DNA of 64,000 bases from Nitrospinaceae bacterium (GTDB lineage Bacteria > Nitrospinota > Nitrospinia > Nitrospinales > VA-1), in contig JAJDBH010000139.1 of the NCBI GenBank assembly GCA_029261455.1, forward strand, positions 12,922 to 76,921, written 5' to 3'. A program made the position numbers and the translations under genes. The notes beneath the pieces were generated by a model, which had not been told where the DNA came from, made no database searches, and worked only from the letters and a program-made list of their open reading frames with translations. Shown piece by piece: positions 2,419 through 20,270 of the stretch (positions are counted from its first letter, which is position 1; every line of letters starts with the position of its first letter).

Positions 2419-2470
2419 TAAATAACCTTTGCTTGTAAAGTAGAGCTATTACAAGTCCAAGCTGAGTAGG

Positions 2471-2896: not shown

Positions 2897-2965
2897 GAAC
2901 CTCTCTCCTTGGGTGTCTATATATTAACTAATTGATGATTTTCGATTCCGTTATAAAATTCTTTA

Positions 2966-3544: not shown

Positions 3545-3550
3545 CCTGTA

Positions 3551-4249
3551 TCAAACCCGTTTATTTTTTTCGAGCAGATCGGGTCGAACCTGCGCGGTTT
3601 TTTTTATCGCTTCCGCCTTTTGCCAGTCGCGTATTTTTTTCGGGTCGCCAGAAACCAGAACTTCTGGAACCTTGAGTCCTTCATAATCCTGAGGCCGAGT
3701 GTATTGCGGGTACTCCAGCAAATCGTCGTGGAAAGATTCTTCCACCACCGATTCCGGGTCACCCAGCACCCCCGGCAATAACCTTGATACTGCCTCAACG
3801 AGAACCATAGCCGGAAGTTCTCCGCCCGTTAAAACATAATCACCTATGGAAATTTCCTCATCGACATAATGCAGACGAATCCGCTCGTCAATGCCCTCAT
3901 AGCGACCACAGATCAGAGTGAGGCTCGACAAGTTCGAGAGCTCCCAAGCTTTTTCCTGATCGAAAGGCCGACCTCCGGGAGACAATAATATCGTCCGGGA
4001 TTCGGGAACTTCCTTTTTGACCGCAGAAATGGCACGGGCAATGGGCTCGACATTCATGACCATGCCCACTCCACCTCCGAAAGGGGAATCATCCACTTTC
4101 CTGTGCTTATTCAGACTGTAGTCGCGCAAATCATGGACGTGAATATCCAACAATCCTTCTTCGCGAGCCCGCTGGATAATGCTATCTCCAAAAGGAGACT
4201 CAAACATCCCCGGAAAAATGCTGACAATGTCAAACCGGAGTGTCCTCAA
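3551..4249 (-). CDS. trmD: tRNA (guanine37-N1)-methyltransferase
   Basis: FDIVSIFPGMFESPF..GGGVGMVM..LICGRYEGIDERI..SIGDYVLTGGELPA. TTG start with GAGGG SD. Confidence 0.95.
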   Translation of the reverse strand: MRTLRFDIVSIFPGMFESPFGDSIIQRAREEGLLDIHVHDLRDYSLNKHRKVDDSPFGGGVGMVMNVEPIARAISAVKKEVPESRTILLSPGGRPFDQEKAWELSNLSSLTLICGRYEGIDERIRLHYVDEEISIGDYVLTGGELPAMVLVEAVSRLLPGVLGDPESVVEESFHDDLLEYPQYTRPQDYEGLKVPEVLVSGDPKKIRDWQKAEAIKKTAQVRPDLLEKNKRV

Positions 4250-4733
4250 TCAAACCCTCAATATTATGAAAAATCAGTTTTTTCTGTTCCAAATCGATGG
4301 ACTTGACCACCGAATCAATCATAGGGAGCATCCATTCCTGATCCCCGTTCCGCACCACATATATATCGTTACTCTTCGTGGGGATAATTTCTTCAATAAC
4401 TCCATAGGGTCGGCCCTCTTCATCGAAGACCGCAAGCCCTTCAATCTCAAAGCGGTAATACTCGCCTTCTGACAAAGGCTTTAGGTTCTCACGTTTAGCC
4501 AAAACTTCTGTACCGGTCAAAAGTTTTGCCGTATCAATGTCATCGATTCCTTCAAACTTAATAATGAAGGGAACGTTGGCCCCACGAATCGATTGAACTT
4601 TTACTTCCTTTTCTTCCAACCGCACAGTCTGTTCACGTAAAGATTCGACCTCTTCCGGGTCATGCGGAAAAAACTTCAATTCACCTTTCAGACCGTGAGT
4701 TCGACCAAGCTTGCCAAAAGAAATCCAGTCCAT
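4230..4733 (-). CDS. rimM: 16S rRNA processing protein RimM
   Basis: WISFGKLGRTHGLKGELKF is a RimM N-terminus, with a PRC-barrel-like C-terminus. I prefer the ATG at 4733 to the TTG at 4751 given in the track. Start uncertain. Confidence 0.85.
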   Translation of the reverse strand: MDWISFGKLGRTHGLKGELKFFPHDPEEVESLREQTVRLEEKEVKVQSIRGANVPFIIKFEGIDDIDTAKLLTGTEVLAKRENLKPLSEGEYYRFEIEGLAVFDEEGRPYGVIEEIIPTKSNDIYVVRNGDQEWMLPMIDSVVKSIDLEQKKLIFHNIEGLIEDTPV

Positions 4734-4734
4734 A

Positions 4735-4965
4735 TCATTCAATAATTTCAAGCACAGCTCGTTTTTTTAATTTGGTCGCAGTCGCGTTCAGGATAGTGCG
4801 CATGGCCCTGGCAGTTTTTCCCTGCTTGCCAATGACCTTTCCCAAATCATCTTTAGCGACCCTCAATTCCAACACCGTTGTTTTCTCGCCTATCACTTCT
4901 TGCAAATCCACTTCATCAGGCTTGTCCACCAACGACTTCGCAATCATCAATATGAGATCTCTCAC
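4735..4965 (-). CDS. KH-domain RNA-binding protein (UPF0109/YlqC-like)
   Basis: 76 aa with [19 protein letters not shown] (GXXG KH motif). GTG start behind AGGAGG. Conserved position between rpsP and rimM. Confidence 0.85.
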
Positions 4966-5076
4966 AATTACCTCCTAGTCCACAGGAAACAAACCCCAGA
5001 ATGAAAAGGAGCAACACAAACTTATTATTCCAGTTCGCGCAATTGTGAGAATCGCGGTTTTGCGAAATGAATGGGC

Positions 5077-5322
5077 TTAAGCCCCGACCCCAGCCTTTTT
5101 GAACAAGGTTCCTACGGTTTTGCTGGGCTTCGCACCTTTCTTGATCCAAGCCATAGCCTTATCCGCGTCAACCTTGCAACCCTCTTCATCGTTAAGAGGA
5201 TCGTAGGTTCCCAGAATCTCAAGAAATCTACCATCTCTTGGCATTCTAGAATCTGCCGCAACAATCCTGTAAAAGGGTTTCTTTTTTGCTCCTCGTCGAG
5301 TCAATCGAATTACAACTGCCAA
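5077..5322 (-). CDS. rpsP: 30S ribosomal protein S16
   Basis: (M)[44 protein letters not shown] start at 5322 sits 7 nt after AGGAGA. The longer track ORF (to 5394) adds a non-S16 extension. Confidence 0.9.
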
Positions 5323-5493
5323 TGTACTTTCTCCTAAGTTACGGGCTTTGCCCGGTATATATGGCGTTAACAACTGCCAATAATTAATGTACAAACAAAA
5401 CTAATACTTATAGCCCAGCTTCACGCTGTTCGGGTCAGGCCCGAAAGATTTGCGGCAAAAAAAACCGCAATAATTCACTCAATAAAAATCCGT

Positions 5494-6840
5494 TTAGAAA
5501 GGCCGACCCGGCATACCTCGTCCGCCCATCAGACTGCCAAAGTTCATACCGCCACCCCGGGCAACCTTTTTCATCATCTTTTGCATTTGCGCAAACTGCT
5601 TCAACAACTTGTTCACATCATTCACCCGGGTGCCACTGCCTAGAGCGATTCTGCGTTTTCTGCTGGCATTGATGATATTGTGTTTTTCGCGTTCCCGCGC
5701 AGTCATGGAATTAATAATCGCCTCAACTTGAACAAAGGCACTGTTATCAATTTTCAAACCTTTCGTCAGTTTTCCCGCACCGGGGATCATCCCTAACAAC
5801 TGCTCCATCGATCCCATTTTTTGCACCTGCTTCAACTGGTCGCGAAAATCTTCCAAAGTAAACGCGTTGCTCTTGAGTTTTTTCTGTAACTTTTCCTGCT
5901 CTTCCTGTTCGAAATTTTGCTCTGCTTTTTCGACCAGGGACATGACATCGCCCATGCCCAGAATACGAGAAACAATGCGGTCAGGATGAAACGGCTCCAA
6001 CGCATCGAGCTTTTCTCCCATTCCTATAAATCGAATAGGTTTGCCGGTCACTCTTCTTATGGAAAATGCCGCACCGCCACGCGCATCACCGTCCATCTTA
6101 GTCAAGACCACGCCATCAATACCGACAGCATCATTAAACGTCTTGGCGATATCGGCAGACTGCTGCCCCATCATCGCATCCGCCACAAACAATACCTCGT
6201 GCGGCTGAACCGCTTTCTTGATCTGCTTTAGCTCTTCCATCAGAGCATCATCAACCTGCTGACGACCCGCAGTATCGATGATCACTATCTGACTCATTCT
6301 GTTGACGGCTTCATCCAGCGAATTTTTACAAATCGCTACGGGATCTTTCTCTTCCCCGGCGTCATACACCGCTACATCGAGCTCCCGTCCTAAAACATGC
6401 AACTGTTCTATCGCTGCCGGACGGTAAACATCCGCAGGAACGAGGAGACAGTTTTTTCCTTTTTCTTTAAACCGCTTAGCCAGTTTACCGACTGTGGTGG
6501 TTTTACCCGCCCCCTGAAGTCCCGCCATCAATATAATAGTGGGCGGCTTCGGCGCAATCGCAATATCAACAAATTCTTCACCCAGCAAATGCGTCAAGTG
6601 ATCGTTGACGATTTTGACCATCTGGTGCCCGGGCGTCAGACTTTTTAGAACTTCCTGACCAACAGCTTGCACACGGACTTCGGCAATAAAATCTTTGATA
6701 ACCGGCAGGCTAACATCTGCCTCGATCAACGCGACACGGATTTCACGCAAGGCCTCATCGACATCGTTTTCCTTGAGGACTCCGCGGCCTTTTAATTTTT
6801 TGTAGATCGCTTCAAGGCGATCGGATAAATTATCGAACAT
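5494..6840 (-). CDS. ffh: Signal recognition particle protein Ffh
   Basis: MFDNLSDRLEAIYKKLKG.., GLQGAGKTTT, DTAGR, TKMDGDARGG and a Met-rich M domain. True start is the ATG at 6840, not 6930. Confidence 0.95.
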   Translation of the reverse strand: MFDNLSDRLEAIYKKLKGRGVLKENDVDEALREIRVALIEADVSLPVIKDFIAEVRVQAVGQEVLKSLTPGHQMVKIVNDHLTHLLGEEFVDIAIAPKPPTIILMAGLQGAGKTTTVGKLAKRFKEKGKNCLLVPADVYRPAAIEQLHVLGRELDVAVYDAGEEKDPVAICKNSLDEAVNRMSQIVIIDTAGRQQVDDALMEELKQIKKAVQPHEVLFVADAMMGQQSADIAKTFNDAVGIDGVVLTKMDGDARGGAAFSIRRVTGKPIRFIGMGEKLDALEPFHPDRIVSRILGMGDVMSLVEKAEQNFEQEEQEKLQKKLKSNAFTLEDFRDQLKQVQKMGSMEQLLGMIPGAGKLTKGLKIDNSAFVQVEAIINSMTAREREKHNIINASRKRRIALGSGTRVNDVNKLLKQFAQMQKMMKKVARGGGMNFGSLMGGRGMPGRPF

Positions 6841-6988
6841 GAAAAATAGGGCTAAACCCTTTAAATTTAAGGGGACTATCGGCTTTAATTGTAAGTCGAT
6901 TAGTATATAATAACAACCCGCAATGCGCAAGCTGATTAGATTAAACCTTTAGCAAGCGCGGCGCAACATCAAAATACCCGGAAAACCT

Positions 6989-7669
6989 ATGAAATCAGTA
7001 GTTTTGTTAAGTGGTGGGCTCGATTCCACCACAACCTTGGCAATGGCTCAAAAAGCGGGGTTTGATCTCTTCTGCCTCACCTTCGACTATGGCCAGCGAC
7101 ATCGAGTCGAGCTGGATCGGGCTCGGGACATCGCTCAGCACTTCGGTGCCATGGACCATCAGATCGTCAAAATCGATTTGCGCCAGTTTGGCGGTTCGGC
7201 TTTGACCGACTCCATTGAGGTTCCGACCGACCGGAACCAAGAGGAAATGTCCGCAGAAATTCCCGTCACCTATGTTCCAGCGCGCAATACCATTTTTCTT
7301 TCGTTTTGTCTGGCTTACGCAGAAGTGAAAGAAGCCAGCGATATTTTTATCGGAGTCAACGCTGTTGATTATAGCGGCTACCCCGATTGCCGACCCGAAT
7401 TTATCAAAGCCTTTGAAACCCTCGCAAACCTGGCCACCAAAGCAGGCGTTGAAGGAAAACAGTCTTTAAAAATTCATACCCCTCTGATCGAATTGAGCAA
7501 GGCAGAAATTATCCAGAAAGGTTTGGAGCTGGGAGTGGATTATGCCATGACCCACAGTTGCTATGATCCAGCAGAGGGAGGAATTTCCTGCGGCGTGTGC
7601 GACAGTTGCCAATTGCGCCTGAAAGGTTTTCAAGAGGCTAGGGTCAAAGACCCTATTGGATATAAGTAA
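6989..7669 (+). CDS. queC: 7-cyano-7-deazaguanine synthase
   Basis: [14 protein letters not shown]-loop, and a C-terminal CxxCxxC zinc site ([10 protein letters not shown]). Confidence 0.95.
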
Positions 7670-7715
7670 GGTAAACAAAGATGAACGCAGATAAAAAATA
7701 AAGAGGTTTAACCCA

Positions 7716-7784
7716 AATCCCCCCAGCCACATTTCGGGGAAGGGGGAATAATCAAAAAACCCCCTCCCCGAATCGGGAAGAGGG
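7716..7784. repeat. REP-like element copy (CCCCAGCC core plus G/C palindromes), acting as a bidirectional terminator region
   Basis: AATCCCCCCAGCC at 7716-7728. Palindrome CCCCCTCCCCGAATCGGGAAGAGGG at 7760-7784 is flanked by A6 on one side and a T-rich stretch on the other. It lies between convergent queC and the His-rich gene. Confidence 0.55.
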
Positions 7785-7830
7785 TTGTATTTTAACTAGC
7801 TCCCACGTGAGTGGGTGCCTAGTGGTGTCT

Positions 7831-8163
7831 CTACATTTTACTTCCTTCTTCTTTACGTTGATGCATCTCTTTCTGCATTTTCTGGTGAGCGTCTTCTTTC
7901 ATGCCGCTACCTTCTTCCATTGCCTCTTTTTTCTCATGCTCATATTTACCGTATTTCTTTTCGTAATGTTCTTTGGAATGCTCACCGCTATCTTTGTATT
8001 CATGAGCCATACCACTAGCTTTATGATCCATTTCCATCGCGGCACCGCCACTGCCTTCTTCATACACTTTTTTATCATGATCCTCACCTTCGTGAGCGAA
8101 AGCGGTGGAAGAAAATAACATTCCCATAACGAGCAATAGAACTGCGAAAAACATCTTTTTCAT
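7831..8163 (-). CDS. Small secreted His/Glu/Lys/Met-rich protein (possible periplasmic metal-binding protein)
   Basis: 110 aa. Signal peptide MKKMFFAVLLLVMGMLFSSTAFA, then a charged low-complexity body with 12 His and an internal repeat EEGSGGAAMEMDHK / EEGSGMKEDAHQK. Confidence 0.6.
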   Translation of the reverse strand: MKKMFFAVLLLVMGMLFSSTAFAHEGEDHDKKVYEEGSGGAAMEMDHKASGMAHEYKDSGEHSKEHYEKKYGKYEHEKKEAMEEGSGMKEDAHQKMQKEMHQRKEEGSKM

Positions 8164-8273
8164 TTTGATCTCCTGGTGTTTATGTCGGGGATGAAACCTG
8201 ACTATAAGAATAACAGTTTTTCATTTATCAAATCAACCGGACTACGACCGGAGGCGGTTTAACCAAAACCCCT

Positions 8274-8361
8274 GGTTGTAAATCACCCCAGCCCTCTTTA
8301 ATAAAGAGGGGGTGAAAACCTAAGCCAACCCTCCCCCAGCCCCTCCCTATGAAGGGAGGGG
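8274..8361. repeat. REP-like element, double copy
   Basis: GGTTGTAAATCACCCCAGCC (8274-8293) is identical to 53590-53609. AATCACCCCAGCCCTCTTTAATAAAGAGGG (8281-8310) is the reverse complement of 51873-51902. A second palindrome, CCCCTCCCTATGAAGGGAGGGG, is at 8340-8361. Confidence 0.7.
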
Positions 8362-8443
8362 AGATTTGAGCAGTGCTCCATCAGCCGAGCCAACTATTTG
8401 TCTGCTCATGAATGCTATTGCAATTGCCCCTGCGGCTAGCAGG

Positions 8444-8956
8444 TTATTTTTCTAGGAGGCGTGGCATTAATTCAACCAGGTTGCAGGGTTTATGAGTGCT
8501 ATCGAGTTGGTGAACGAGAATCTGGTCCCACCCGTCTTTGCAGGCCCCGGTAGAGCCCGGTAAGGCAAACAGGAAGGTACCGTTAGCAACCCCGGCTGTG
8601 CAACGCGATTGCAGGCTGGATGTTTTGATAGTTTCATAACTCAACATACGGAACAGTTCACCAAATCCGGGAATAGACTTTTCATACAACGCCTCAAAAG
8701 CTTCGGGAGTGATGTCGCGCCCTGTCACCCCTGTTCCACCTGTAGCGATCACGGCATCGACATCGGGACTGGCGATCCATTTCTTCAATTGCTCCTGAAG
8801 CAGGTCTATTTCATCTTTGATGATTTTCTTTTCCACCAGATGATGCCCGGCTCCTTTGATCCGATCGACTAAAGTCTGGCCGGATTTATCATCCTCTTCG
8901 GTGCGGGTATCGGAAACTGTCAGCACGGCGATGTTCACGCATTTCTTCTCACTCAT
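8444..8956 (-). CDS. moaB: Molybdenum cofactor biosynthesis protein B (MoaB/MogA family)
   Basis: NIAVLTVSDTRT..DKSG..VIATGGTGVTGRDITPEA..PGSTGA are typical MoCF_biosynth domain motifs. Confidence 0.85.
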   Translation of the reverse strand: MSEKKCVNIAVLTVSDTRTEEDDKSGQTLVDRIKGAGHHLVEKKIIKDEIDLLQEQLKKWIASPDVDAVIATGGTGVTGRDITPEAFEALYEKSIPGFGELFRMLSYETIKTSSLQSRCTAGVANGTFLFALPGSTGACKDGWDQILVHQLDSTHKPCNLVELMPRLLEK

Positions 8957-9089
8957 TTTTTAATCGCTCCTCTTTCCTGAAAATGTATCGGGTCTATAAA
9001 GAATCGGTTTCTATAATTGCAGAACCCGGTTTATGGTAAATTGATGATTAGCGGGTGAGTATATCATAAGCAATTTGTGAGGAACAAAA

Positions 9090-9797
9090 GTGCCAACAGC
9101 TATTGTGACAGGAGGAGCTATCCGCATCGGCCGGGCGATGGCTCTGCATCTAGCCCGAAAGGGATTCAATATCGCTCTGCTTTATCATAGCTCAGGAACG
9201 GCAAGCGAGGAAACTATCGAGGAAGCGCGAGCTCAAGGAGTTCATTGTCAGGGCTATGCGGGAGATTTGAGAAACCTTGAAGAGGCTGAATTGTTCATCG
9301 GCAAAATCCTCAAAGATTTTGATGATGTAGAACTGCTGGTCAATTCTGCGGCCAATTTCATTCAGGAAAATGTAGAGCAGACCCAGCTGGAAACCCTGGT
9401 CGACACCCTCAACCTTAATCTCATGGCGCCTTATTTGCTGATGCGTGAGTACAAACGCAAAGTGAACAAAGGTTTGATCGTCAATATTCTCGATGAGCGT
9501 GTGGCAAAAACTCTGCCCACATTCGCAGCTTATTCTGTCAGCAAAGTGGGTTTGAAACATTTAACCGAGCTGGCGGCGGTGGAGTGGGGGAAGTCTATTC
9601 GAGTCAATGGCATCGCGCCGGGACTCATCCTCCCCCCTCAGGGAGGTCCGCCTGATTATCTTGAAAAGGCCGCAAAAAAAGTTCCCACAGGCACCCATGG
9701 CAATTTGGAAAACCTCACTAAAGCTTTGGACTATCTGATGGAAAACACATTTGTGAACGGTGAAACCCTTTTTGTCGATGGCGGCGAATTCCTCTAA
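9090..9797 (+). CDS. SDR-family oxidoreductase (pteridine-reductase-like)
   Basis: TAIVTGGAIRIGRA (glycine-rich NAD(P)-binding motif), YSVSK (YxxxK catalytic motif), NGIAPG. GTG start. Confidence 0.85.
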   Translation: MPTAIVTGGAIRIGRAMALHLARKGFNIALLYHSSGTASEETIEEARAQGVHCQGYAGDLRNLEEAELFIGKILKDFDDVELLVNSAANFIQENVEQTQLETLVDTLNLNLMAPYLLMREYKRKVNKGLIVNILDERVAKTLPTFAAYSVSKVGLKHLTELAAVEWGKSIRVNGIAPGLILPPQGGPPDYLEKAAKKVPTGTHGNLENLTKALDYLMENTFVNGETLFVDGGEFL

Positions 9798-9799
9798 CA

Positions 9800-10747
9800 A
9801 TGGAACAATACGATTTCAAAATAGACTCAGCTGCCAGCCGGGAACGGCTTGACGTTTTTCTATCCACCCAACAGACAGAGATCAGTCGGTCGCGACTGAA
9901 AAAACTGATTATTGAAGGCCGAGTTACGGTCAACGGTGTGGTGCGACCTGTTGGATATAAAGTTCGGGAAGGAGACCAAGTCACCGTTCAGGTTCCTGCC
10001 CCGGTTCCTCTCGACACTGTGGCAGAACCCATCCCGCTGGATATTATTTTTGAAGATGAATATTTCCTTGCCCTGAACAAACCCGCGGGCATTGTGGTTC
10101 ACCCCGCACCGGGGCATTATACGGGGACACTGGTTAATGCATTACTGCATCATTGCAAAGACCTGTCGGGGATTGGCGGGGTCGAGAGACCCGGCATTGT
10201 ACACCGGCTCGATAAAGACACCTCGGGACTGGTCATGGTTGCCAAAACCGAAGCCGCACACAAAAATCTGGCAGCACAATTCAAGAAACGCGAAATCCAC
10301 AAAGAATATCTTGCCTTCGTGAAAGGCAATGTTAAAAAGGATACAGGTTCAATCCATACCAGCATCGGTCGGCATAAAGTTCACCGTAAAAAAATGGACA
10401 CAAGAGCCTCAAACGGCCGGGAAGCCTACACGGAATATCAGGTCGTACATCGAGGCAAAGATTGGTCTTATCTGAAGCTCTGGCCTAAAACAGGAAGAAC
10501 CCATCAAATTCGGGTTCATTTGGCTTCGATCCACCACCCCGTAATCGGGGATCAACTTTATGGTGGGAAGTCCCCTAAGCTGAAAATGCCCAGACAGGCT
10601 TTGCACGCTCATAAATTGGAATTAAAACACCCGATTTCGGGCTCAGGCTTATCATTTCAAGCACCACTTCCATCAGATATGGAAATCTTCCTACAATCCC
10701 ACGGGTATTCCTCCTCTGAAAAAATTGACGCCCTGCTAGAACAATAA
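9800..10747 (+). CDS. rluD: 23S rRNA pseudouridine synthase, RluA/RluD family
   Basis: N-terminal S4 domain (RLDVFL..SRSRLKKLI..GRVTVNG). Catalytic HRLDKDTSGL. Also GRTHQIRVH. Confidence 0.9.
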   Translation: MEQYDFKIDSAASRERLDVFLSTQQTEISRSRLKKLIIEGRVTVNGVVRPVGYKVREGDQVTVQVPAPVPLDTVAEPIPLDIIFEDEYFLALNKPAGIVVHPAPGHYTGTLVNALLHHCKDLSGIGGVERPGIVHRLDKDTSGLVMVAKTEAAHKNLAAQFKKREIHKEYLAFVKGNVKKDTGSIHTSIGRHKVHRKKMDTRASNGREAYTEYQVVHRGKDWSYLKLWPKTGRTHQIRVHLASIHHPVIGDQLYGGKSPKLKMPRQALHAHKLELKHPISGSGLSFQAPLPSDMEIFLQSHGYSSSEKIDALLEQ

Positions 10748-10816
10748 AGTTCACTCACCAACCAGACTAAAGCGTAATATTTCAAGTTCTCTCACGGTTC
10801 CTGATTGTGAGTTATT

Positions 10817-11391
10817 TGTGGAAAATTTTTGAATATCAGCGTTCTGATATTTTAAAATCCCCCTCAGCAAAAGATTCTCCTTGGAAGACTGAGAAATATC
10901 TCTTTGCTTTCAATGATTTAAATTTTCCTCACATTCATGTCGAATAACTACCGACCCAAAAAGAGGAGTCTGTGGTTTTTCCACAATTTTCAAGTTTAAA
11001 AAAAATTTAAAACAGATGCCTATAATAGGGGGAAGGAAAGGGTATCAAAATCCCGTCAGGCTTTTCCCCCTATAATCAGTCCGTCAAAAAACATTGCAAC
11101 ATCGACATTATGATTTAACCCTCTGGAGGCTTAGATGTAGGGGGAAATAAGGTACCCGAATTTTGACGCTTGATTTGCCCTTAATATATCTGAACAAACC
11201 AAATTCGACTCCCTTATTGCCTAGGTAAAGCCAATGGTTTAAGGGTGTTGAGTAAACATCATCAAGATCAACCTTTGCAGCGGGGTTTATTCTCTATACT
11301 CATCTCAATTCTCTTGCCTGACAAGGGTTTCAAAGGGCCCCCATATCAGGGAAAATCTTTTCCACATTATTTGTGCAAAACCTGTGGAAAA
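10817..11391. promoter_or_regulatory. Cluster of five DnaA-box matches (TTWTNCACA) with an adjacent A/T-only tract; candidate oriC or DnaA-binding locus
   Basis: TGTGGAAAA 10817-10825, TTTTCCACA 10977-10985, TTTTCCACA 11358-11366, TGTGCAAAA 11372-11380, TGTGGAAAA 11383-11391. AT-rich tract (one C, three G in 30 nt) at 10986-11015. No ORF of 60 aa or more in 10748-11607. Confidence 0.5.
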
Positions 11392-11607
11392 CAGCAGGTA
11401 CACTTTCTCTAACACACGATAATTAAAGGCTTTTGGGGTTCCCGATTAGAAACTACGCAACCCGAACAACTCTTTGATTTTTAACAATATTTCAAAGTCT
11501 TCGTTCTAAAGATAAAGGGTGCATCTAATAAAGTTTCTCTTGGCAGGTTTTTTGCGATTTCCGGGAGGGTTTTACGACTTTATTGATTGATGCCAGTTAA
11601 GCCCAGG

Positions 11608-12123
11608 CTAGGCACAGCATTTTTTATATTTTTTTCCACTCCCACAGGGGCAAGGGTCATTTCTGCCAATTTTGGCTTCACTACGAACAACAGTTTTGGG
11701 CTTCACCAGAGGCGAGGTCGCGACAGGAGGCAAGGTAGAATCTTTACGACTATAAACCCAACGACCATTGACTTTATAAAAACGAGAGGATTCTCTCAGG
11801 GTTTGTTCAGCATCTTCCTTAGTATAATAGGCAACAAAATCTACCTGCCCCTCAGAGTCTTCATGACCACCGGCTCGGGTATTCACAATTTCCAGCCTCT
11901 TCCAAACCACCTCGTCGTCGATCAGGTCTGGCCCCAGCCTGGCCATTTCTTTTTTTTCTTCAGGGTGACTGGTAATAACCAGATATTCCCAGTTTTTCTG
12001 AGTGAACGCGGTATAGCGCGACCGCATCAGATCCTCAGCCGTATCAGCGTATCCGGTACCTCGGATCAATAGGCCACAACAATCAGTAAAGGGGGAGTTC
12101 GAACCACAGGGGCAATCTTTCAT
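11608..12123 (-). CDS. SEC-C motif protein, YchJ/UPF0225 family
   Basis: N-terminal CPCGS..FTDCC and C-terminal [22 protein letters not shown] zinc motifs flank an NTF2-like middle. Confidence 0.8.
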
Positions 12124-12230
12124 TTTAGATAATCCGGTCTTTCTACTTGAAGGTTCTTCTTTTTTATTTAATAAAAAGGTATTTAGTGTGCTTCAACGGG
12201 TACTCCAAAAATCACAACTAGACAAAATAT

Positions 12231-12389
12231 CTATTTAACCGGTTTTCTCCTGAAGGGGAATGCCGGTCTCTGCCCTTTACGTTCCGCCAAACGTGAAGGT
12301 TTATTTTCACCATTTGGGTTATCTTTAACCTCTTGATCGCTCAGAGGCTTCTCTTGCTTCTGTTCCTTGTCTTGATTCGGGTTGTTCAT
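12231..12389 (-). CDS. Possible small hydrophilic protein (52 aa)
   Basis: Below the track threshold. ATG at 12389 sits 6 nt after GGAGAA. MNNPNQDKEQKQEKPLSDQEVKDNPNGENKPSRLAERKGQRPAFPFRRKPVK. Same direction as, and upstream of, the SEC-C gene. Confidence 0.3.
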   Translation of the reverse strand: MNNPNQDKEQKQEKPLSDQEVKDNPNGENKPSRLAERKGQRPAFPFRRKPVK

Positions 12390-12813
12390 TATAGTTCTCC
12401 AAATCATTCAACTATTTTTATTCTTTAATAGCATACGCAATCCAAACACCTCACACCAAAAGAAATCGTCTTCTACTCTATTTAGGTCTACCTATCAGAG
12501 CAAACGAATTATTGAGTGCCCGGAAAAAACAATGCCTTATCAGCTACGGGTTAAATCCAACCGGACTGACCAGCGCAAGTATTTGTAATTTAGGCCATAC
12601 CCCCCCCCAAACAGGCGATCAATTTACCCCTACCTGATGATATTCTTAGAAAAATAAGAACAAAAATTGTTAAAAAGCGTCTAAAATAAGACACTACATC
12701 TAAAAATACGCACCCATATAGAATTCCTTATTTGCGGGGATAAGAAAATTCTACCCCGCAAATAGCTGAATATAAAGGCATACCCTAGACCACTTACAAC
12801 ATGCTTGGAAGTT

Positions 12814-12829
12814 TGGTCTCTATTTTGCT
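12814..12829 (+). promoter_or_regulatory. Candidate sigma-54 promoter for the pilin operon
   Basis: TGGTCTCTATTTTGCT has GG and GC with the canonical -24/-12 spacing (TGG-N9-TTGC). It lies 25 nt upstream of the first pilin start. Confidence 0.35.
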
Positions 12830-12853
12830 TTAACCACAAGTGAGAATAAATAA

Positions 12854-13459
12854 ATGGTAACGGGAATGATATCAGCAAAAGATTTTAAGAATTTAGGACA
12901 ACTCCTTAAATCTCGAGAAGGTTTCACTTTAATTGAAACCATAATGGTTTTAGCGGTCTTCGGAGTAATCATGGCGATCGCAACTCCAAATTTTTCAAAA
13001 TGGAAAGAGAAACACGAGATAAACGGTCAAGCACAAAAGGTCTATTTTGATTTGATGTTGGCTCGCACCTCTGCTGTCAAAAATAACAATATCGTTAGAG
13101 TCGCTTTCAACACGACTAGTCACACCTACACAATTCATAACGACACCAATGAGGACGGCATCCAAGACTCTGGAGAGGCTGTGAAATCCGTAGCCTTGGA
13201 AAATGATATAAATTTCGCTTACAACACCGGAAACGATGTGGATGGCAATGCCATTGGCGCAGCTGTTTCCTTTGGCGGTTCCACAACAGTTACTTTCGAC
13301 TCCCGAGGCCAGTCCAACGCGAGTGGTTCGGTGTTCTTATTGCACACGAGTGATATCGGCAGCACTAATGACCGCGCACGTTCCATCAGTGTACTTCAGG
13401 CTACCGGTGCTGTGGATTACTGGACTTATGATGGAAGCGTTACGCCTCCTTGGAAATAA
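12854..13459 (+). CDS. GspH/FimT-like minor pilin (prepilin-type N-terminal methylation domain)
   Basis: ..KSREG|FTLIETIMVLAVFGVIMAIA. Class III signal with Glu5. About 200 aa. Confidence 0.8.
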   Translation: MVTGMISAKDFKNLGQLLKSREGFTLIETIMVLAVFGVIMAIATPNFSKWKEKHEINGQAQKVYFDLMLARTSAVKNNNIVRVAFNTTSHTYTIHNDTNEDGIQDSGEAVKSVALENDINFAYNTGNDVDGNAIGAAVSFGGSTTVTFDSRGQSNASGSVFLLHTSDIGSTNDRARSISVLQATGAVDYWTYDGSVTPPWK

Positions 13460-13461
13460 AC

Positions 13462-13974
13462 ATGAAAAACTTAACCAGCATTGCAGTGGACATGGATCAA
13501 GATCAGAAGGGATTCACATTGATTGAAGTGGTGGTCAGCATGGTCATTCTGTCCGTGGGTATTTTTGGCCTGATTAAAACCGCCAGTTCGGTCATTTATC
13601 ATCAGGATAATTCCAGATTGATCACCGAGGCCACGTTGAAAACCACAAATAAAATTGAGAACACAAAGCGTTACGGAGCGAATGAGCCCACAGGAGGCGC
13701 GTATGGTTTTAACTACCTCACGACTGATTATTTAACGGATGAAGTTTTCGCTGAAATCACTGACCAGAACTATAGAAAAATTGAGACCGACGGGGATTTC
13801 ACCATCACCACAAATCTCCAAGTTTATCCTTCAAGCTCGTCCGAAAACTTTGATGACCCGACATCAATACATATGCTGGAAGTAGTGGTCACAACAGTAT
13901 GGACTGACAGCCGGGGGCAAAGCAAAAATGTGGAAATGGCATCGGTACTTCACAGGAGGCAATTCATAGAATGA
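13462..13974 (+). CDS. PilV-like minor pilin
   Basis: MKNLTSIAVDMDQDQKG|FTLIEVVVSMVILSVGIFGL. I prefer the ATG at 13462 to the TTG at 13450. Confidence 0.75.
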   Translation: MKNLTSIAVDMDQDQKGFTLIEVVVSMVILSVGIFGLIKTASSVIYHQDNSRLITEATLKTTNKIENTKRYGANEPTGGAYGFNYLTTDYLTDEVFAEITDQNYRKIETDGDFTITTNLQVYPSSSSENFDDPTSIHMLEVVVTTVWTDSRGQSKNVEMASVLHRRQFIE

Positions 13975-15770
13975 TGAAAACGCATTTAAAACTAATTCGA
14001 CAGGAACGAGGAAGTACCCTAGTTGTGTATATGTTTGTTCTGGCTGCAATGGCAGCAATTGCTATTGCTTCATTGCAGACAATCACATTAAACCTCGAAT
14101 CCTCTCACTCCCATAAAAAAGGAAGAAATGCCTTTTATTCTGCCGAGGTCGGGCTCGACCTGGCCGTGAACGATATCATCTCTGAGTTTGAGAACCTTAG
14201 CGTCTACACAACTTCAGCCGATGATTCGAGCTCAGATGCTAACGGTTTTATTTCCGTCGCCGATTACCGCAACTATGCTGTCAATTATAATATAACCAAC
14301 CCGGTCGAGCGATTTCTCTATCAGACAGTGGTGGGAAATACCATTATCTATCATTACGCTCACACCTTCGATATTCAAGCTAACTCAACATCACTCAAAG
14401 ATTCCTCCAGAGAAACCGTGAACGAACAAATTCGGGTTCTGGAGACCCCTCTAGTCCAGTACTATATCTTTTATGGTGGATCAGGAAACGATGCCGATCT
14501 GGAAATTCTTCCAGGACCAACTATGAATAGTTGGGGACGGATTCATTCAAACAGCGACATATATATTGGCGCCGGTAGCACGTTTAACCTGAGAAATTAC
14601 GATACCGATAATAACTTGTCACCACACTCCATCGTTGCTGCGGGAAACATCTATTTGAAACGTAAAAACAATGGAAGCCCTTACGCGAATAACAAAGTCT
14701 ATGTAAAAACCTCTAACACGGGAACCACTTTTTCCCCCACTCAAAATATTGCAGCAACAATCAATTCTGTCAACGAGGACACTGAGGAAATCCGTTTCAA
14801 CAATTACCTCCTTATCAATGAAGAACCTTATTCAGTTCCCAGTCAAACCTTGTTCAAACGAGGTGCTTTTTACGAAAGCCGGTCTGGCGACCCACAACGA
14901 ACAACCATTGATGGAATAACGATTGTCGGCACAGGAGGTGTCGGTACCGGAAACATAGAGGTTTATGTTTCCCGGCCTAACGCCAACACCAATGTCACCG
15001 CTCTGGTTGCAGCGATGGAGTCTTCAACGGGAACGTCCACCGGTTTGGCTGACGCGATTACAGAAACAACTTCAGCCTTCCGAGACTGCCGAGAGGAGCG
15101 GGACGTCGACACCACGAATATCGACCTCAATCTCCTGGAGTTATGGTACGAAGAATATCTAGCCGATCAAGGTCTAAGTTTAGCGGGCGATGGCATACTG
15201 ATTTATACCTCTCGCTCTCCAGATGCAACGTATACAAATAGCGACACCAATCTTCAGGCCATTCGTCTGATGAAACTTGATACCACCTCAGCCCCCCAAT
15301 TATCCGATGAAACAACAGTTGCTACTGACAACCCTGTTTATATCCAGGGTGATTTCAATACCATTGATACCAAGGGCGTAGCAGTCATCAGCGATGCTCT
15401 CAATATTCTCTCTAACAGTTTCACTGGAAGAACATCTTGCAGTAGCAAAACAGACGCAACCACGACCACCCTCAATGCAGCATTCTTCGGCGGTAATGTT
15501 CCCACTCCTGCTGGGGGTGGGAACTACAGCGGAGGACTTGAAAATTATCCACGGTTTCAGGAAAGATGGAGTGGCATTGATTGCAATATCCGGGGAAGCT
15601 TTATCAACCTGTGGACCAGTTCCCAAGCTACAGAAAGATGGGGAAAATCAAATGTATATAACCCTCCGGGCCGTGCCTGGGGCTGGGATGTTCGGTTTCA
15701 GGACCCTGATTTCTGGCCGCCTTTTATTCCTTCCATCTTCAGTGTGGAGCGGGTGGGCTTTCTCGAATAG
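13971..15770 (+). CDS. Giant PilX-N-terminal-domain pilus protein (599 aa)
   Basis: ERGSTLVVYMFVLAAMAAIAIASLQ...AFYSAEVGLDLA is a PilX_N-like hydrophobic helix without Glu5. ATGA overlap with the upstream gene. C-terminus: GGLENYPRFQERWSG...PPGRAWGWDVRF. Confidence 0.7.
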   Translation: MMKTHLKLIRQERGSTLVVYMFVLAAMAAIAIASLQTITLNLESSHSHKKGRNAFYSAEVGLDLAVNDIISEFENLSVYTTSADDSSSDANGFISVADYRNYAVNYNITNPVERFLYQTVVGNTIIYHYAHTFDIQANSTSLKDSSRETVNEQIRVLETPLVQYYIFYGGSGNDADLEILPGPTMNSWGRIHSNSDIYIGAGSTFNLRNYDTDNNLSPHSIVAAGNIYLKRKNNGSPYANNKVYVKTSNTGTTFSPTQNIAATINSVNEDTEEIRFNNYLLINEEPYSVPSQTLFKRGAFYESRSGDPQRTTIDGITIVGTGGVGTGNIEVYVSRPNANTNVTALVAAMESSTGTSTGLADAITETTSAFRDCREERDVDTTNIDLNLLELWYEEYLADQGLSLAGDGILIYTSRSPDATYTNSDTNLQAIRLMKLDTTSAPQLSDETTVATDNPVYIQGDFNTIDTKGVAVISDALNILSNSFTGRTSCSSKTDATTTTLNAAFFGGNVPTPAGGGNYSGGLENYPRFQERWSGIDCNIRGSFINLWTSSQATERWGKSNVYNPPGRAWGWDVRFQDPDFWPPFIPSIFSVERVGFLE

Positions 15771-15794
15771 TCATCGAACAACGAGGGACATAAA

Positions 15795-17540
15795 ATGAAT
15801 CAGTCATCAAAAAAATCAAAATGGGGAATGAATGAGCGCGGATTCACCATGGCCGAATTGCTAATAGGGTCTGCAATCTCATTAATCATGCTTGGCCTCG
15901 TGGCAGGGATCATTTCTTCGCAAAAGAATACTTTCTCACGGCAGAGCCAGTTAGGCCAAATGCAGGCCAACGGTAGAGCTTCTGTTGACTTTATAACCCG
16001 TAGCGTCCAGAACGCAGGCTACAACGTCACCCGAGGCAAAAGATTTCTCGCCGCATCCGACCATTACATCACCATGGTTTTTGATGACGACAATGACGGC
16101 ACAATTCAAAATGATGAAGTCATGACTTATGCCGTCTCGAATCCCGACAACTCTACCCTCAGCCCCCCCTTCTCGATCAACCCCTATTTTGATGACGATG
16201 GAGATGGTGAGGTAGACAGCACAGAAACACGGCCCTACTCAATTTCTCTAGGCTTGGAAAATCCTCCATTTCACTTTTATCGCATCACTCCTGATCAAGG
16301 GACTTCAGATGTCACAAAAAGTAAAGTGGCTCGCAATATCGACAACTTGATCATCCGCTATTGGGATAAAAATGGGGACCCTCTGCCAATAGACGTCGCC
16401 ACTGATGCTGACGAAAATCCGGTTCCGCCTTACACCCTTTTAGCCAGCGAATTAAATGAGATTAGAAAGGTGACTATTGAAGTCGTTACAAGGTCCAAGG
16501 ATGAAGACCCCAACGAAAACTACGTGAACAGCGGCACGTATTATACGGGCAGTGTTGCTACTGCAGGAGGCACAACTGCTTATAGCGACCGCTACCATCG
16601 TGAAACTTACACAGCAGTCACCTCCCCAAGAAACCTGGTCACCGCTCCTTGGGGAAAAATCAATTTAGTGGCTAATCCCACACCGGTCAATTGCCCGGAC
16701 ACTTCGACCACCATTACTGCGAGCGTTCTGGATTCAGAAGGAACTGGCATTGACGGTTTGAACGTCAACTTTAACACCAGTGATGGCACAGTAAGCCCGA
16801 CGATCTCGAGTCCTACAAGTAGCGCAGGAGAAACAACCACAACCTTAACTTATGACTGGTCATCACCCAGCGTTACGGCGACTCTTTCCGCCAACACGCT
16901 AATTGATGTGGATGGAGAAGAATACCCGGTATTCAGTGCTATTCCAGTGTCTTTTGAATCGGGGACCGGTATTTTTCAAGATAACTTTGAAAGTGGAAAT
17001 AGCGATGACTGGACCGAAGGAGGTACTGCCAACTGGAATGTTGCAGCGGGTCAATACAAAACGGCCTCCAACGGATTTGCTTTCTCCCGCAATGGATGTG
17101 CAGCCTGGCAGGATTATGTAGCCCAGGTAGATATCAAGCGCAATGGTTCATTAGGCTCGTCGGGTGAATATGTAAGCCTTGTTCTAAGATATCAAAATGA
17201 CAACCAATATTACATGGCAAAAATATCCTGTTCAAGCAACTGCAGCGGAGGTAATCCAAACGATGACTTGTATGTTTTGGAACTGGTAAGTTATGACAGT
17301 GGTGAAACCACTCTGATCAGTTCCTCCACTTTTACTTTTACCAATAATACGTACTATACCCTTATGGCCAGTGCCAACGGAGATGAACTCAAGGCTAAGT
17401 TCTGGGTAGCAGGCACAGCTGAACCTGCCGCCTGGGACATTACTATAACTAACACTGACTATTCCCAGGGAGAAATTGCTTTGACCACAATAACAAGCAC
17501 CACAACCTTTGATGAGGTAGTCGTCACCCCGGCTTCATGA
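15795..17540 (+). CDS. PilW-like minor pilin fused to Ig-like and LamG/lectin-like C-terminal domains (581 aa)
   Basis: NERG|FTMAELLIGSAISLIMLGLV. An Ig-like segment (TTITASVLDSEGTGIDGLNVNFNTSDGTVSP) lies at about 16675-16895. A jelly-roll-like C-terminus (FQDNFESGNSDDWTEGG..WQDY..LVLRYQNDNQYYMAKI..FDEVVV) lies at about 16968-17537. Confidence 0.7.
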   Translation: MNQSSKKSKWGMNERGFTMAELLIGSAISLIMLGLVAGIISSQKNTFSRQSQLGQMQANGRASVDFITRSVQNAGYNVTRGKRFLAASDHYITMVFDDDNDGTIQNDEVMTYAVSNPDNSTLSPPFSINPYFDDDGDGEVDSTETRPYSISLGLENPPFHFYRITPDQGTSDVTKSKVARNIDNLIIRYWDKNGDPLPIDVATDADENPVPPYTLLASELNEIRKVTIEVVTRSKDEDPNENYVNSGTYYTGSVATAGGTTAYSDRYHRETYTAVTSPRNLVTAPWGKINLVANPTPVNCPDTSTTITASVLDSEGTGIDGLNVNFNTSDGTVSPTISSPTSSAGETTTTLTYDWSSPSVTATLSANTLIDVDGEEYPVFSAIPVSFESGTGIFQDNFESGNSDDWTEGGTANWNVAAGQYKTASNGFAFSRNGCAAWQDYVAQVDIKRNGSLGSSGEYVSLVLRYQNDNQYYMAKISCSSNCSGGNPNDDLYVLELVSYDSGETTLISSSTFTFTNNTYYTLMASANGDELKAKFWVAGTAEPAAWDITITNTDYSQGEIALTTITSTTTFDEVVVTPAS

Positions 17541-17619
17541 CGACTAACAAACACCACAACCATTAAGAATGTAGTCTTCTCCCCAACCGAGAAAAGGAAA
17601 CGCTCTATCAGTCCTTTTA

Positions 17620-17647
17620 GCGCAACCCCCTTTTGTGGGGGTTGCGC
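17620..17647 (+). terminator. Perfect 11-bp-stem hairpin between the two pilin modules
   Basis: GCGCAACCCCC-TTTTGT-GGGGGTTGCGC, followed within 8 nt by CTTTTTCC. Confidence 0.6.
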
Positions 17648-17711
17648 GACAAACTTTTTCCTCCATACTTATAAGGTCATAGCTAGACACAATTAATCTA
17701 GAGATCTAATA

Positions 17712-18149
17712 ATGAACCCCTTAAAAAATAATTCCGGTTTTAGTCTCGTTGAAGTTCTCATTGCGGCTCTGATCATTGTGGCAGGTCTGATTGCTTACGT
17801 TATGACATCGGGAAATGTTATTGGTAAAAATGCGCAAAGTAAAAAAGAGTCCGTAGCTGTAACTCTGGCTCAGGACAAAATGGAGTCTATAAGAAATACT
17901 GCTTTAACTGTTTCTTTATCAGGGGCAGATACATTGGCCTCTCCGACTGAATCTGGAGGAGTCTGGACTGCCAACGCTGGAGGAGAGGTGGTTGATGTGG
18001 ATGGGAATACAGGAACTACAGAAGCTATTTATACTCGTTCATGGACGATTACTGAAGATGCCACATTGACGAATTTTCACACTGTATCTGTATCGGTTTT
18101 ATGGGACAGCAATCAAACGATCAGTCTGGATACTCTGATTTCTCAATAA
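17712..18149 (+). CDS. PilV-like minor pilin
   Basis: MNPLKNNSG|FSLVEVLIAALIIVAGLIAYV. 145 aa. Confidence 0.75.
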   Translation: MNPLKNNSGFSLVEVLIAALIIVAGLIAYVMTSGNVIGKNAQSKKESVAVTLAQDKMESIRNTALTVSLSGADTLASPTESGGVWTANAGGEVVDVDGNTGTTEAIYTRSWTITEDATLTNFHTVSVSVLWDSNQTISLDTLISQ

Positions 18150-18159
18150 TGGTTAACTT

Positions 18160-18933
18160 ATGATATATACCTCTAAAAACTTACAAAATGAGCGTGGGTT
18201 CACCTTGATTGAAATGATGATCGCTGGGGTTCTCGGAGTTCTTATTTTAGGTGCGGCAGTATATGTATTCACTAAGCAAGAGACTGTTTTAAAAACGGAA
18301 AATGCTTCCACCAATATACGGGCCAAAGGGCGCCACGCAATTAAAGTGCTTGTTCAGGAGTTGAAGGAGATTGGATTTGGATTGCCTCCGACAGAAGGAT
18401 TAGTTGCCCCAAGTCCCGTAGCAAACTCTTCAACGATTACCTACCGCGCCAATTTAAGTGATGTGCGTGCTACCACACCTCCAAGCGCAGCAAATGGAGG
18501 AAGCTTAAACGATACAGACATCGATGTTGTTGATGATGGTGACGACTTCAGCGATAACGATAAAATCATTATTTATAATCCAAGCTATGGAGATTCAGAG
18601 CTGAACACAGTGAGTGGAACGCCTACAACCACAAACATTCCCTTGGGAAGTGGTTTAGCAAATAATTACTCCTATGGGGCAAGTTCTAAACTTGTGACCA
18701 TCAATAAATATAATGATGTTGTGATTGATTTAAATGGTACGAATATTAGGAAAACAGTCGACGGAGGAACCCCCATCACCCTTATAGGCGATGTGTCTGA
18801 CCTAACTTTTGATTTTTATGGGGTGACTCAAACGGCTCTAGTTACCACAATAGGAATTACGATCACTTTGCAGGACCCTTCCGATTCAGCTATCACTCAG
18901 GATTTCAACACTGACATTACCTTAAGGAATTAA
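18160..18933 (+). CDS. PilW-like minor pilin
   Basis: NERG|FTLIEMMIAGVLGVLILGAAVYVF. 257 aa. Confidence 0.7.
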   Translation: MIYTSKNLQNERGFTLIEMMIAGVLGVLILGAAVYVFTKQETVLKTENASTNIRAKGRHAIKVLVQELKEIGFGLPPTEGLVAPSPVANSSTITYRANLSDVRATTPPSAANGGSLNDTDIDVVDDGDDFSDNDKIIIYNPSYGDSELNTVSGTPTTTNIPLGSGLANNYSYGASSKLVTINKYNDVVIDLNGTNIRKTVDGGTPITLIGDVSDLTFDFYGVTQTALVTTIGITITLQDPSDSAITQDFNTDITLRN

Positions 18934-20270
18934 TGCATATGCCAAAAGATAATGTGTTTAAAAATTTGAGTTGTCGGAGAACTCTTTTCAGGGCAGGTTA
19001 TCTTTCCAATCAAAATGGCATTGCTCTTGTTACGGGTTTGATTTTTATGCTTCTGATGACACTGCTAATGTTTACAGCTATTAAATACTCTTCATCAGAT
19101 ATCACCCGCACAAAAAATTACACCGAAACCCGTCAGGCAACCTACATAGCCGAAGCAGGAATTCATCGGGCCTTAAACTATTTCAATTATGATGGCTCCG
19201 GTAACAGCCCGGGAGAAGCGAGCAATGGTTTTAATGACGAACTGGACAGCAGCAACTGGCCTGCTGGAACGTTTACCAACATTGCTCTTGGTAGTAATGG
19301 AGGGACTTATTCAGTTGTTATTAGTGACAACTCTGATGGCACAGCTACTACTAGTGATGCTGACAACACAGTTATCCTTACTTCTACCGGAACTATAAGT
19401 GGAGTCACAGCCGTCATCGAAGCGATCATTTATCGGCCTTTGTTTATATCTCAGTATGCCATTTTATCTGAAGGGGATGTCAAGATTGCCGGAAGTTCAA
19501 CAACGATTCAAGGATCAAGCGGATCTGTACACACCAATAGCGATTTCACCCAATCGGGGGGCCCCACAATCAGTGGAGGAGCAAACGCATCAGGGACTTG
19601 TTCAGGGGACCAGTGTGATAGTTCTGGCGCACCCGTTGAGTATGTCCCGGTTCTTGAGCCTTCGGACTATGAACAATATGCGGATTACATATTTAACTCA
19701 GATGGAACTATTGACCAGAGAAATTCCGACTCAAGCATCACAACAGGTGTTGAAGGGAATGTAATATTTTCCAAATTTTCCCATAATAGCCAAGGTTGGT
19801 CCGTGGGCAATAGTTCGACGGTTGGGACTACTATTCCAAATCAGGCCAACCTTTATTTTAAAGACGATTTTAAAGCCACATCTGTTGGCGATTCAACCAC
19901 ACCGTGGGAAGTTACCTTAATCGTAGAAAAAAGTATTTCCTGGACGGGGAACGCATACATTACAAACTGGAAAGATACATCCCTTTCACCGGATCTGCAA
20001 AACCTGTTTTTAATTGCAGGAAATGATATCAAGATGAGTAGCATGGAGCAGGACACCCAGGGCTTGATCGCCTGTAAAGATCAGGCATCCCTTTCTGGTG
20101 GTGCGAACATTGAAGGGTATCTTATCTCAAACAATTTAACCACTTCGGACAACACAGTTAATGGAACAGAGACCGATGGTTCTGGTGGCTTGACCCTTAC
20201 CTATAATGGGGACTTGGCTGCACCAGTATTGAATAATAAAGTGTCTATTCTTTCCTGGCAGCAAACTTAA
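18933..20270 (+). CDS. Large PilX-N-terminal-domain pilus protein (445 aa)
   Basis: NQNGIALVTGLIFMLLMTLLMFTAI...ATYIAEAGIHRALNYF is PilX_N-like with no Glu5. Its start overlaps the upstream stop (TAATG). Confidence 0.65.
   Translation: MHMPKDNVFKNLSCRRTLFRAGYLSNQNGIALVTGLIFMLLMTLLMFTAIKYSSSDITRTKNYTETRQATYIAEAGIHRALNYFNYDGSGNSPGEASNGFNDELDSSNWPAGTFTNIALGSNGGTYSVVISDNSDGTATTSDADNTVILTSTGTISGVTAVIEAIIYRPLFISQYAILSEGDVKIAGSSTTIQGSSGSVHTNSDFTQSGGPTISGGANASGTCSGDQCDSSGAPVEYVPVLEPSDYEQYADYIFNSDGTIDQRNSDSSITTGVEGNVIFSKFSHNSQGWSVGNSSTVGTTIPNQANLYFKDDFKATSVGDSTTPWEVTLIVEKSISWTGNAYITNWKDTSLSPDLQNLFLIAGNDIKMSSMEQDTQGLIACKDQASLSGGANIEGYLISNNLTTSDNTVNGTETDGSGGLTLTYNGDLAAPVLNNKVSILSWQQT

Follow-up and report, generated by a model that had tools for sequence, protein, structure and literature searches.

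The stretch of DNA analysed in this study, hereafter the window, is 64,000 nucleotides long and comes from a Nitrospinaceae bacterium of the phylum Nitrospinota (GenBank assembly GCA_029261455.1, contig JAJDBH010000139.1, positions 12,922 to 76,921). It carries a cassette of four minor-pilin genes, designated cassette A, in the order H-I-K-J. The last gene is an open reading frame (ORF) at 15795-17540 that is open throughout and encodes P0001, a protein of 581 amino acids (aa) followed by a stop codon. P0001 has four parts: a class III (prepilin) signal, a pilin module of the GspJ/PilW type, an Ig-like domain, and a jelly-roll of the concanavalin A (ConA)-like fold. The cassette genes and the features of P0001 described below all lie on the + strand. 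Nitrospina and its relatives are the ocean's main nitrite oxidisers, and how they attach to particles or partner cells is poorly understood. We favour, with moderate confidence, the reading that P0001 is a tip-displayed, glycan-binding J pilin of a type IVa pilus (T4aP) that lacks PilY1.

Domain architecture of P0001

P0001 had 138 homologues, and all named ones belonged to Nitrospina, Nitrospinales, or Candidatus Nitrohelix. A family alignment, A1, was made from 39 of the 138 homologues, and the conservation counts below refer to these 39 members. The class III signal (15795-15905) consists of a 16-aa leader with a predicted cleavage site between G16 and F17. The N-terminus, MNQSSKKSKWGMNERG|FTMAELLIGSAISLIMLGLVAGII, has Gly at -1, Phe at +1, and Glu at +5 (Glu21), followed by about 20 hydrophobic residues that form the start of the alpha1 helix. 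G16 and F17 were invariant in A1, and E21 was conserved in at least 90% of the members. Pfam N_methyl matched residues 12-36 of P0001 with an E-value of 8e-4, just below the curated cut-off, and it matched 36 of the 39 family members at E<0.01. An earlier sequence-only reading of this DNA had proposed a canonical prepilin signal, and the site MNQSSKKSKWGMNERG|FTMAE bears this out. All motifs quoted in that reading were present in the P0001 translation.

A model of full-length P0001 was generated from A1 with AlphaFold2 (AF2). The mean predicted local distance difference test (pLDDT) score was 84.9 and was above 90 across most of the C-terminal domain. The predicted template modelling (pTM) score was 0.49, and the geometry between domains in this model is unreliable. 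Its secondary structure comprised an alpha1 helix (residues 19-73), a beta-rich pilin globule up to about residue 280, a seven-strand sandwich (residues 287-388), and a two-sheet jelly-roll (residues 394-579). A search of P0001 against NCBIfam gave generic pilin-helix matches only, and the single sequence searched against the PDB gave weak matches to calmodulin loops only.

The pilin module covers residues 17-285 (15843-16649). A separate AF2 model of residues 1-290 reached a pLDDT of 82.7 and a pTM of 0.77. When this model was compared with the PDB using Foldseek, the best 23 matches were almost only J-type minor pilins or pseudopilins. These included chain 9a1f_S of the XcpGHIJK model (E 5.7e-4, template modelling (TM) score 0.55), Tt1219, EpsJ, and XcpW, all with modest scores. 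Tt1219 of Thermus has been described as XcpW/GspJ-like (PMC5131608). Pfam PilW (PF16074) matched residues 168-280 weakly (E 0.0086, 16.5 bits against a cut-off of 26) and was found at E<0.01 in 5 of the 39 members. The PilW-like region of the sequence-only reading stands, by the J-type fold of the model. Because the Foldseek matches are to J-type entries and the neighbouring H, I, and K genes fit, P0001 is, on the modelled fold, the J (PilW/GspJ-type) subunit of an H-I-K-J minor-pilin set.

In this study, we also found two EF-hand-type loops in the pilin module, which were absent from the earlier description. Loop 1 (DDDNDGTIQNDE) covers residues 97-108 (16083-16118), and its positions 1, 3, 5, 6, 8, and 12 were kept in 35-39 of the 39 family members. 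Loop 2 (DDDGDGEVDSTE) covers residues 133-144 (16191-16226). Its D133 and E144 were invariant; position 3 was D or N and position 8 was V or I in 39/39, and Gly6 was kept in 36/39. Both loops of P0001 fit the 12-residue EF-hand pattern at every position (acidic or amide residues at 1, 3, 5, and 12, Gly at 6, and a hydrophobic residue at 8). Pfam EF-hand models matched 9 of the 39 members, the nearest PDB sequence matches of loop 1 were calmodulin loops, and the loops were retained in orthologues with 38-40% identity. The two loops probably bind Ca2+ and stabilise or gate the pilin module.

The Ig-like domain lies at residues 286-388 (16650-16958) and resembles Big_1 and invasin D3 domains. Big_1 matched residues 303-367 with an E-value of 1e-6 (28.9 bits against a cut-off of 34.9). 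Across the family, Big_1 was found in 28 of the 39 members at E<0.01 and Invasin_D3 in 19 of the 39. Together with the seven beta-strands modelled over residues 287-388, these matches support the Ig-like segment that had been read from the sequence.

The C-terminal head, residues 392-581 (16968-17537), is a ConA-like jelly-roll similar to CBM66 and DUF1080, as indicated by Foldseek, by the family profile, and by PF06439 matches in orthologues. The best PDB match to the modelled head was the carbohydrate-binding module (CBM) CBM66 of Bacillus subtilis levanase (4b1m), with a TM score of 0.75-0.80, a root mean square deviation of 3.0 A, and an E-value of about 1e-6. This was followed by the L-type lectins VIP36 and ERGIC-53 (TM score about 0.5) and by C-terminal sandwiches of GH43 proteins. 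The family profile matched CBM66 (4azz) with an E-value of 0.0076, and this match spanned the entire head. PF06439 (formerly DUF1080, 3-keto-disaccharide hydrolase) was matched in 7 of the 39 members (best E 2.4e-5), and it was not matched by P0001 itself up to E 1. A LamG/DUF1080-type jelly-roll had been predicted from motifs, and a structure search on an AF2 model had been suggested as the check. Run with Foldseek on the jelly-roll, this search recovered the CBM66-like fold, and the all-beta two-sheet model agrees with the prediction. CBM66 ligand-binding residues are not given in PMC12678895.

The head was the most variable part of P0001, with a mean pairwise identity of 0.42 compared to 0.57 in the pilin module. 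Its conserved residues include W406, E408, R465, Y473, W537, and D573. J orthologues of other lineages diverged beyond residue 500-540 or so. The J versions of genus g19 (L022, at G020:C1 6748-9927, and those of G021 and G022) have 1069-1108 aa, with about 450 residues added between the Ig domain and the jelly-roll. When the 1059-aa variant (L022) and a 629-aa variant (L024) were searched against Pfam, the inserted or replaced segments had no match. A genome search found no paralogue of the head in the genome of the window. In other genomes, the head domain had 527 homologues, mostly in very large secreted multidomain proteins and often in several copies, and a few of the 527 belong to further giant pilins, about 1,900 aa long.

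The H-I-K-J cassette and its link to the type IVa pilus machine

Cassette A begins with a GspH/FimU-like H-type minor pilin of 201 aa (12854-13459), which matched Pfam GspH (E 1e-8) and N_methyl (E 3e-6) and, in NCBIfam, ComGD, GspH, and the Verru_Chthon cassette protein D. Its orthologue occupies the same position in L022 and L024. The second gene (13450-13974) encodes a PilV/GspI-like I-type minor pilin of 174 aa, with matches to N_methyl (E 9e-9), TIGR02523 PilV (E 3e-6), GspI, and XpsI. The third gene (13971-15770) encodes a large protein of 599 aa. We assigned it to the K type because it has PilX_N (E 5e-4), lacks Glu5 (G|STLVV), and is 599 aa long. Glu5 was present in H, I, and J and missing in K. 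Residues 495-555 of the K protein matched the C-terminal part of cyanobacterial HpsA with an E-value of 1e-13.

The components of a T4aP machine are encoded elsewhere in the genome of the window. Contig C116 carries pilMNOPQ and a PilA-like pilin, with a candidate major pilin at 32288-32677, contig C20 carries pilB, pilC, two pilT genes, pilSR, and further pilins, and a prepilin peptidase gene (Peptidase_A24) is located on contig C152. In G020 (L022) and G048 (L024), the H-I-K-J cassette is located directly 3' of pilQ-aroB and 5' of an aldehyde dehydrogenase gene. The genome of the window keeps this order of pilQ, aroB, and the aldehyde dehydrogenase gene, but only a 219-aa ORF separates the last two, and the cassette is absent from this site; in this genus, the cassette is at another locus, beside a second set. 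K/J and pilM shared a contig, at a distance of about 8-13 kb, in at least 15 genomes from three families. This linkage and the synteny with pilQ-aroB indicate that the cassette belongs with the T4aP machine.

A separate type II secretion system (T2SS) locus with its own four pseudopilin genes is present on contig C106 (7645-10045), and a third minor-pilin set is located at the end of contig C79 (1-2214). At least four sets of H/I/J/K-like genes are therefore found in a single genome of 3.5 Mb. We considered whether cassette A could be a part of the T2SS. This was rejected because the T2SS on C106 already encodes pseudopilins of its own, and because synteny places the cassette with pilMNOPQ. 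Two adjacent T2SSE-family ATPase genes with unusually long frames (954 and 1021 aa) were also observed on contig C181 (17060-21147).

Distribution of the cassette and of PilY1

About 37 of the 120 Nitrospinota genomes had a full-length J orthologue, and these genomes all belong to families f1, f3, and f4 within a single order. The 599-aa K protein was present in 40 of the 102 genomes of the order. Wherever a contig contained both genes, K lay next to J, and it was directly upstream of J in all nine loci examined. The two genes are strictly co-inherited, and the cassette is conserved as a unit. Among the 51 high-quality genomes of the order, pilM was present in 46 and the cassette in 25, and the cassette is thus accessory to the pilus.

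A remnant of the J gene was observed in the complete genome G072 of the same genus (L023, G072:C1 6970-8221). It is frameshifted and covers residues 152-581, approximately. The remnant is flanked by the same genes, a SEC-C gene and rodA, and all other pilin genes of both clusters have been deleted, with pilM still present in G072.

PilY1 (PF05567), the tip adhesin of classical T4aP, was found neither in P0001 nor in the window nor in the 84.5%-complete genome, and none of the 102 genomes of the order had a match. The 14 control genomes of the first search also had none; a phylum-wide search then found PilY1 in other orders. In the sampled genomes of other Nitrospinota lineages (families f5-f9), 11 of 18 had a match to PF05567. 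The search is therefore effective within this phylum, and the statement of the sequence-only reading that PilY1 is missing here now extends from the window to the genome and the order. The loci of families f5-f9 encode I (154 aa), J (211-250 aa), K (175-219 aa), and PilY1 (1167-1524 aa), in that order and sometimes in several copies. Within Nitrospinota, the fused J pilin and the 599-aa K pilin occurred only in the order without PilY1, and sister lineages combine small J and K pilins with PilY1; the two distributions are thus complementary. This pattern is the strongest new support for an adhesin built into the pilin in place of PilY1. The earlier suggestion of such a replacement is plausible, but its claim to a new architecture is not supported, as precedents are known.

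Classical PilV-PilW-PilX-PilY1 arrays were observed in deep-branching Nitrospinota: L031 (G108:C1 2235-17785), L030 (G115:C13), and L029 (G005:C182). G108 had four PF05567 matches inside about 20 kb of one contig, and three ORFs of PilY1 size are located in 2235-17785. Some PilY1 proteins of the deep-branching Nitrospinota hold 12-residue EF-hand loops, such as DDDGDGILQSTE.

Comparison with known tip proteins

The sequence-only reading regarded a lectin covalently built into a minor pilin as a different architecture for a pilus adhesin. This was not supported. PilC of Streptococcus sanguinis (PDB 7OA7/7OA8) has the same three-part layout, a pilin module followed by an Ig-like fold and a C-terminal ConA-like lectin, and it binds sialylated glycans and heparin (PMC9934059). 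As proposed for P0001, it has an I-type partner, the I-like pilin that stabilises it, and a proposed site at the pilus tip, where it has been modelled (PMC9934059). In addition, a survey catalogued more than 1,200 modular pilins with 264 architectures in monoderms and diderms, and the lectin-type domain PF13385 was among the 15 most frequent modules (PMC8179133). P0001 is itself a modular pilin as defined in that survey, having a pilin module and domains that are not specific to type IV filaments (PMC8179133). Both the principle and the three-part layout were therefore already known, and the present case extends the existing understanding of lectin-bearing modular pilins without changing it.

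PilC and P0001 also differ. The host of PilC is a monoderm with only three minor pilins, and PilC combines a galectin-like head with a pilin moiety that is unusually short. In P0001, which comes from a diderm and is part of a complete H-I-K-J cassette, the J-type module is a full one of about 270 aa and bears two EF-hand loops, and the head is CBM66/DUF1080-like. No similarity between PilC and P0001 was found in the sequence searches against the PDB or in the best 50 Foldseek matches listed. As no sequence relationship was detected, the two proteins are probably independent fusions.

P0001 shares with GspJ/XcpW/EpsJ, PilW, and Tt1219 the J-type fold, Glu5, and a cassette with H, I, and K. However, the known J subunits have about 200-280 aa without an added domain, and P0001 has about 300 residues more. 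The gene order also differs, being H-I-K-J here and H-I-J-K in the known systems. The head shares the jelly-roll fold and similar N- and C-terminal motifs with CBM66 of SacC (4AZZ/4B1M) and with DUF1080/PF06439, but CBM66 is found in the context of a glycoside hydrolase and the head of P0001 in that of a pilin. CofB/TcpB, which have beta-repeat and lectin-like domains, and CpaL of Caulobacter are further examples of large minor pilins or pilin-like proteins with additional domains and a function at the tip, in initiation and binding. They belong to other pilus classes (IVb and Tad, respectively), with other pilin types and other added folds, and CpaL compares better with the 599-aa K protein than with P0001.

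PilY1 is a non-pilin protein of more than 1000 aa with a beta-propeller, and its C-terminal strand attaches to K (PMC13533445). The role proposed for P0001 resembles that of PilY1/PilC (PF05567), a tip adhesin with an EF-hand-type calcium site, which in P0001 is predicted. The two are not homologous, and the adhesive module of P0001 is covalently part of the pilin. The EF-hand pair in the J pilin appears to parallel the calcium site of a protein that is missing from the order, and this parallel is testable. According to a tip licensing model, the last strand of the K sheet is provided either by PilY1 in trans or by K itself in cis (PMC13533445). In CpaL, a protein of about 600 residues, the C-terminus folds back onto the pilin-like domain (PMC13533445). 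By analogy, a K protein of 599 aa in a system without PilY1 is consistent with the cis-closing model, and such a K protein may complete its beta-sheet in cis, like CpaL and GspK. The features that are distinct here are the J module with two EF-hands, the CBM66/DUF1080-like head, the H-I-K-J cassette in a diderm, and the phyletic trade-off with PilY1.

Proposed mechanism and alternatives

We propose that the accessory H-I-K-J set primes and caps the type IVa pilus in the Nitrospinota of this order. P0001 would be cleaved by the prepilin peptidase at G16|F17, and its alpha1 helix and pilin module would assemble with the I subunit, the large K subunit, and the H adaptor into an initiation complex that ends at the pilus tip. 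The Ig-like domain would serve as a stalk and leave the ConA-like head exposed, where it would most likely bind carbohydrate on particles, exopolymer, or other cells. Since the order has no PilY1, the J and K pilins appear to have its adhesin role, and possibly its calcium-dependent role, built into them: the EF-hand loops would act within the J module, and K would probably close its own beta-sheet. A more far-reaching scenario is that PilY1 was lost in one order of Nitrospinota and that the minor pilins took over both of its hallmark roles, adhesion and the calcium-dependent control of the tip complex: J with its EF-hands, Ig stalk, and lectin head, and K as a self-closing subunit. We regard this scenario as tentative and would not assume it.

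Several points weigh against a glycan-binding tip adhesin. Few independent evolutionary events, in essence a single split between orders, underlie the complementarity with PilY1. The similarity of the head to CBM66 is at the superfamily level, with 18-20% identity and the profile E-value of 0.0076 given above. The ConA-like fold is also used for protein binding and catalysis. By analogy with GspIJK-type complexes, J would not be the topmost subunit, and the display of the head at the tip therefore depends on the Ig stalk. Finally, half of the high-quality genomes of the order carry pilM without the cassette, which shows that the cassette is dispensable for piliation as such.

Two alternatives concern what the head would bind, and we consider each of them rather improbable. 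One is that the cassette is a pseudopilus set with a role similar to that of the Hps proteins, handling the cell's own exopolysaccharide, with the jelly-roll binding this polymer rather than foreign surfaces, either as a guide for secretion or as a cue for retraction on slime. The match of K to the C-terminal part of HpsA, a hormogonium polysaccharide protein, points in this direction (E 1e-13), H and J weakly match HpsC and the Verru_Chthon cassette proteins D and C, and a carbohydrate-binding fold would suit this role equally well. However, the HpsA match covers about 60 residues and the HpsC match is confined to the generic pilin helix. Moreover, no glycosyltransferase or polysaccharide-export genes were found beside the cassette in the window, L022, or L024, and the synteny is with pilMNOPQ. 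In the other, the head would be a LamG-type binding module whose ligand is not a carbohydrate, for instance a protein of a partner cell or the surface of a mineral or particle, which would make P0001 a tip adhesin and not a lectin. Foldseek also found LamG-like and thrombospondin C-terminal domains, very large secreted proteins contain homologous domains with no assigned ligand, frequently as multiple copies, and sequence similarity to proven CBMs is weak. Against this, the best match in both structure and sequence is CBM66, a proven carbohydrate-binding module, the L-type lectins come next, and domains of the PF06439 and PF13385 types are mostly associated with carbohydrate.

We give very little weight to the possibility that the C-terminal domain is an enzyme on the pilus or pseudopilus, either a 3-keto-disaccharide hydrolase or a ConA-like glycanase. 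Such a domain would account for PF06439 in 7 of the 39 members, and modular pilins with predicted peptidase modules exist (PMC8179133), but P0001 did not match PF06439 up to E 1, its best structural match is a non-catalytic CBM, and the ExDxxE motif of the GH16 type is not visible in residues 392-581. A role in priming only seems equally improbable. P0001 would then be buried in the periplasm or at the secretin, with its extra domains used for docking to the machine or for contact with peptidoglycan. HIJK sets are indeed primarily assembly initiators (PMC9934059, PMC13533445), and J is not apical in the GspIJK structures. However, filaments grow from the base, and initiation complexes therefore reach the tip (PMC9934059). 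The head also evolves faster than the rest of the protein, and it has been replaced or lengthened in some lineages, which is typical of exposed modules, and the cassette is accessory while pilM is near-universal. The reading of P0001 as a glycan-binding tip pilin is preferred.

If this reading is true, it represents a natural replacement of PilY1 by modular pilins in a diderm T4aP, and the head might attach nitrite oxidisers to the glycans of marine particles or of ammonia-oxidising partners. A tip lectin encoded in a pilin is a concrete candidate for testing how Nitrospina attaches. Nitrospinota also offer a side-by-side comparison of how tip complexes are constructed and how adhesins are retained under load.

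Neighbouring genes and the 3' region

A second and shorter set of minor-pilin genes, cluster B, follows cassette A at 17712-20270 and comprises an I-like gene, a J-like gene of 257 aa, and a K-like gene of 445 aa. Within the genome, the P0001 pilin module had a single paralogue, the J-like pilin P0123 of cluster B (E 2e-6). A perfect 11-bp hairpin (GCGCAACCCCC-N6-GGGGGTTGCGC) with a T-rich tail is located at 17620-17648 on the + strand; it was read directly from the sequence, as a simple scan missed it. A promoter-like site was found downstream of the hairpin, between cassette A and cluster B (17684-17713). The hairpin probably terminates cassette A ahead of cluster B. Just past the stop codon of the P0001 gene, 17551-17588 is a degenerate, in-phase copy of about the last 40 nt of the gene.

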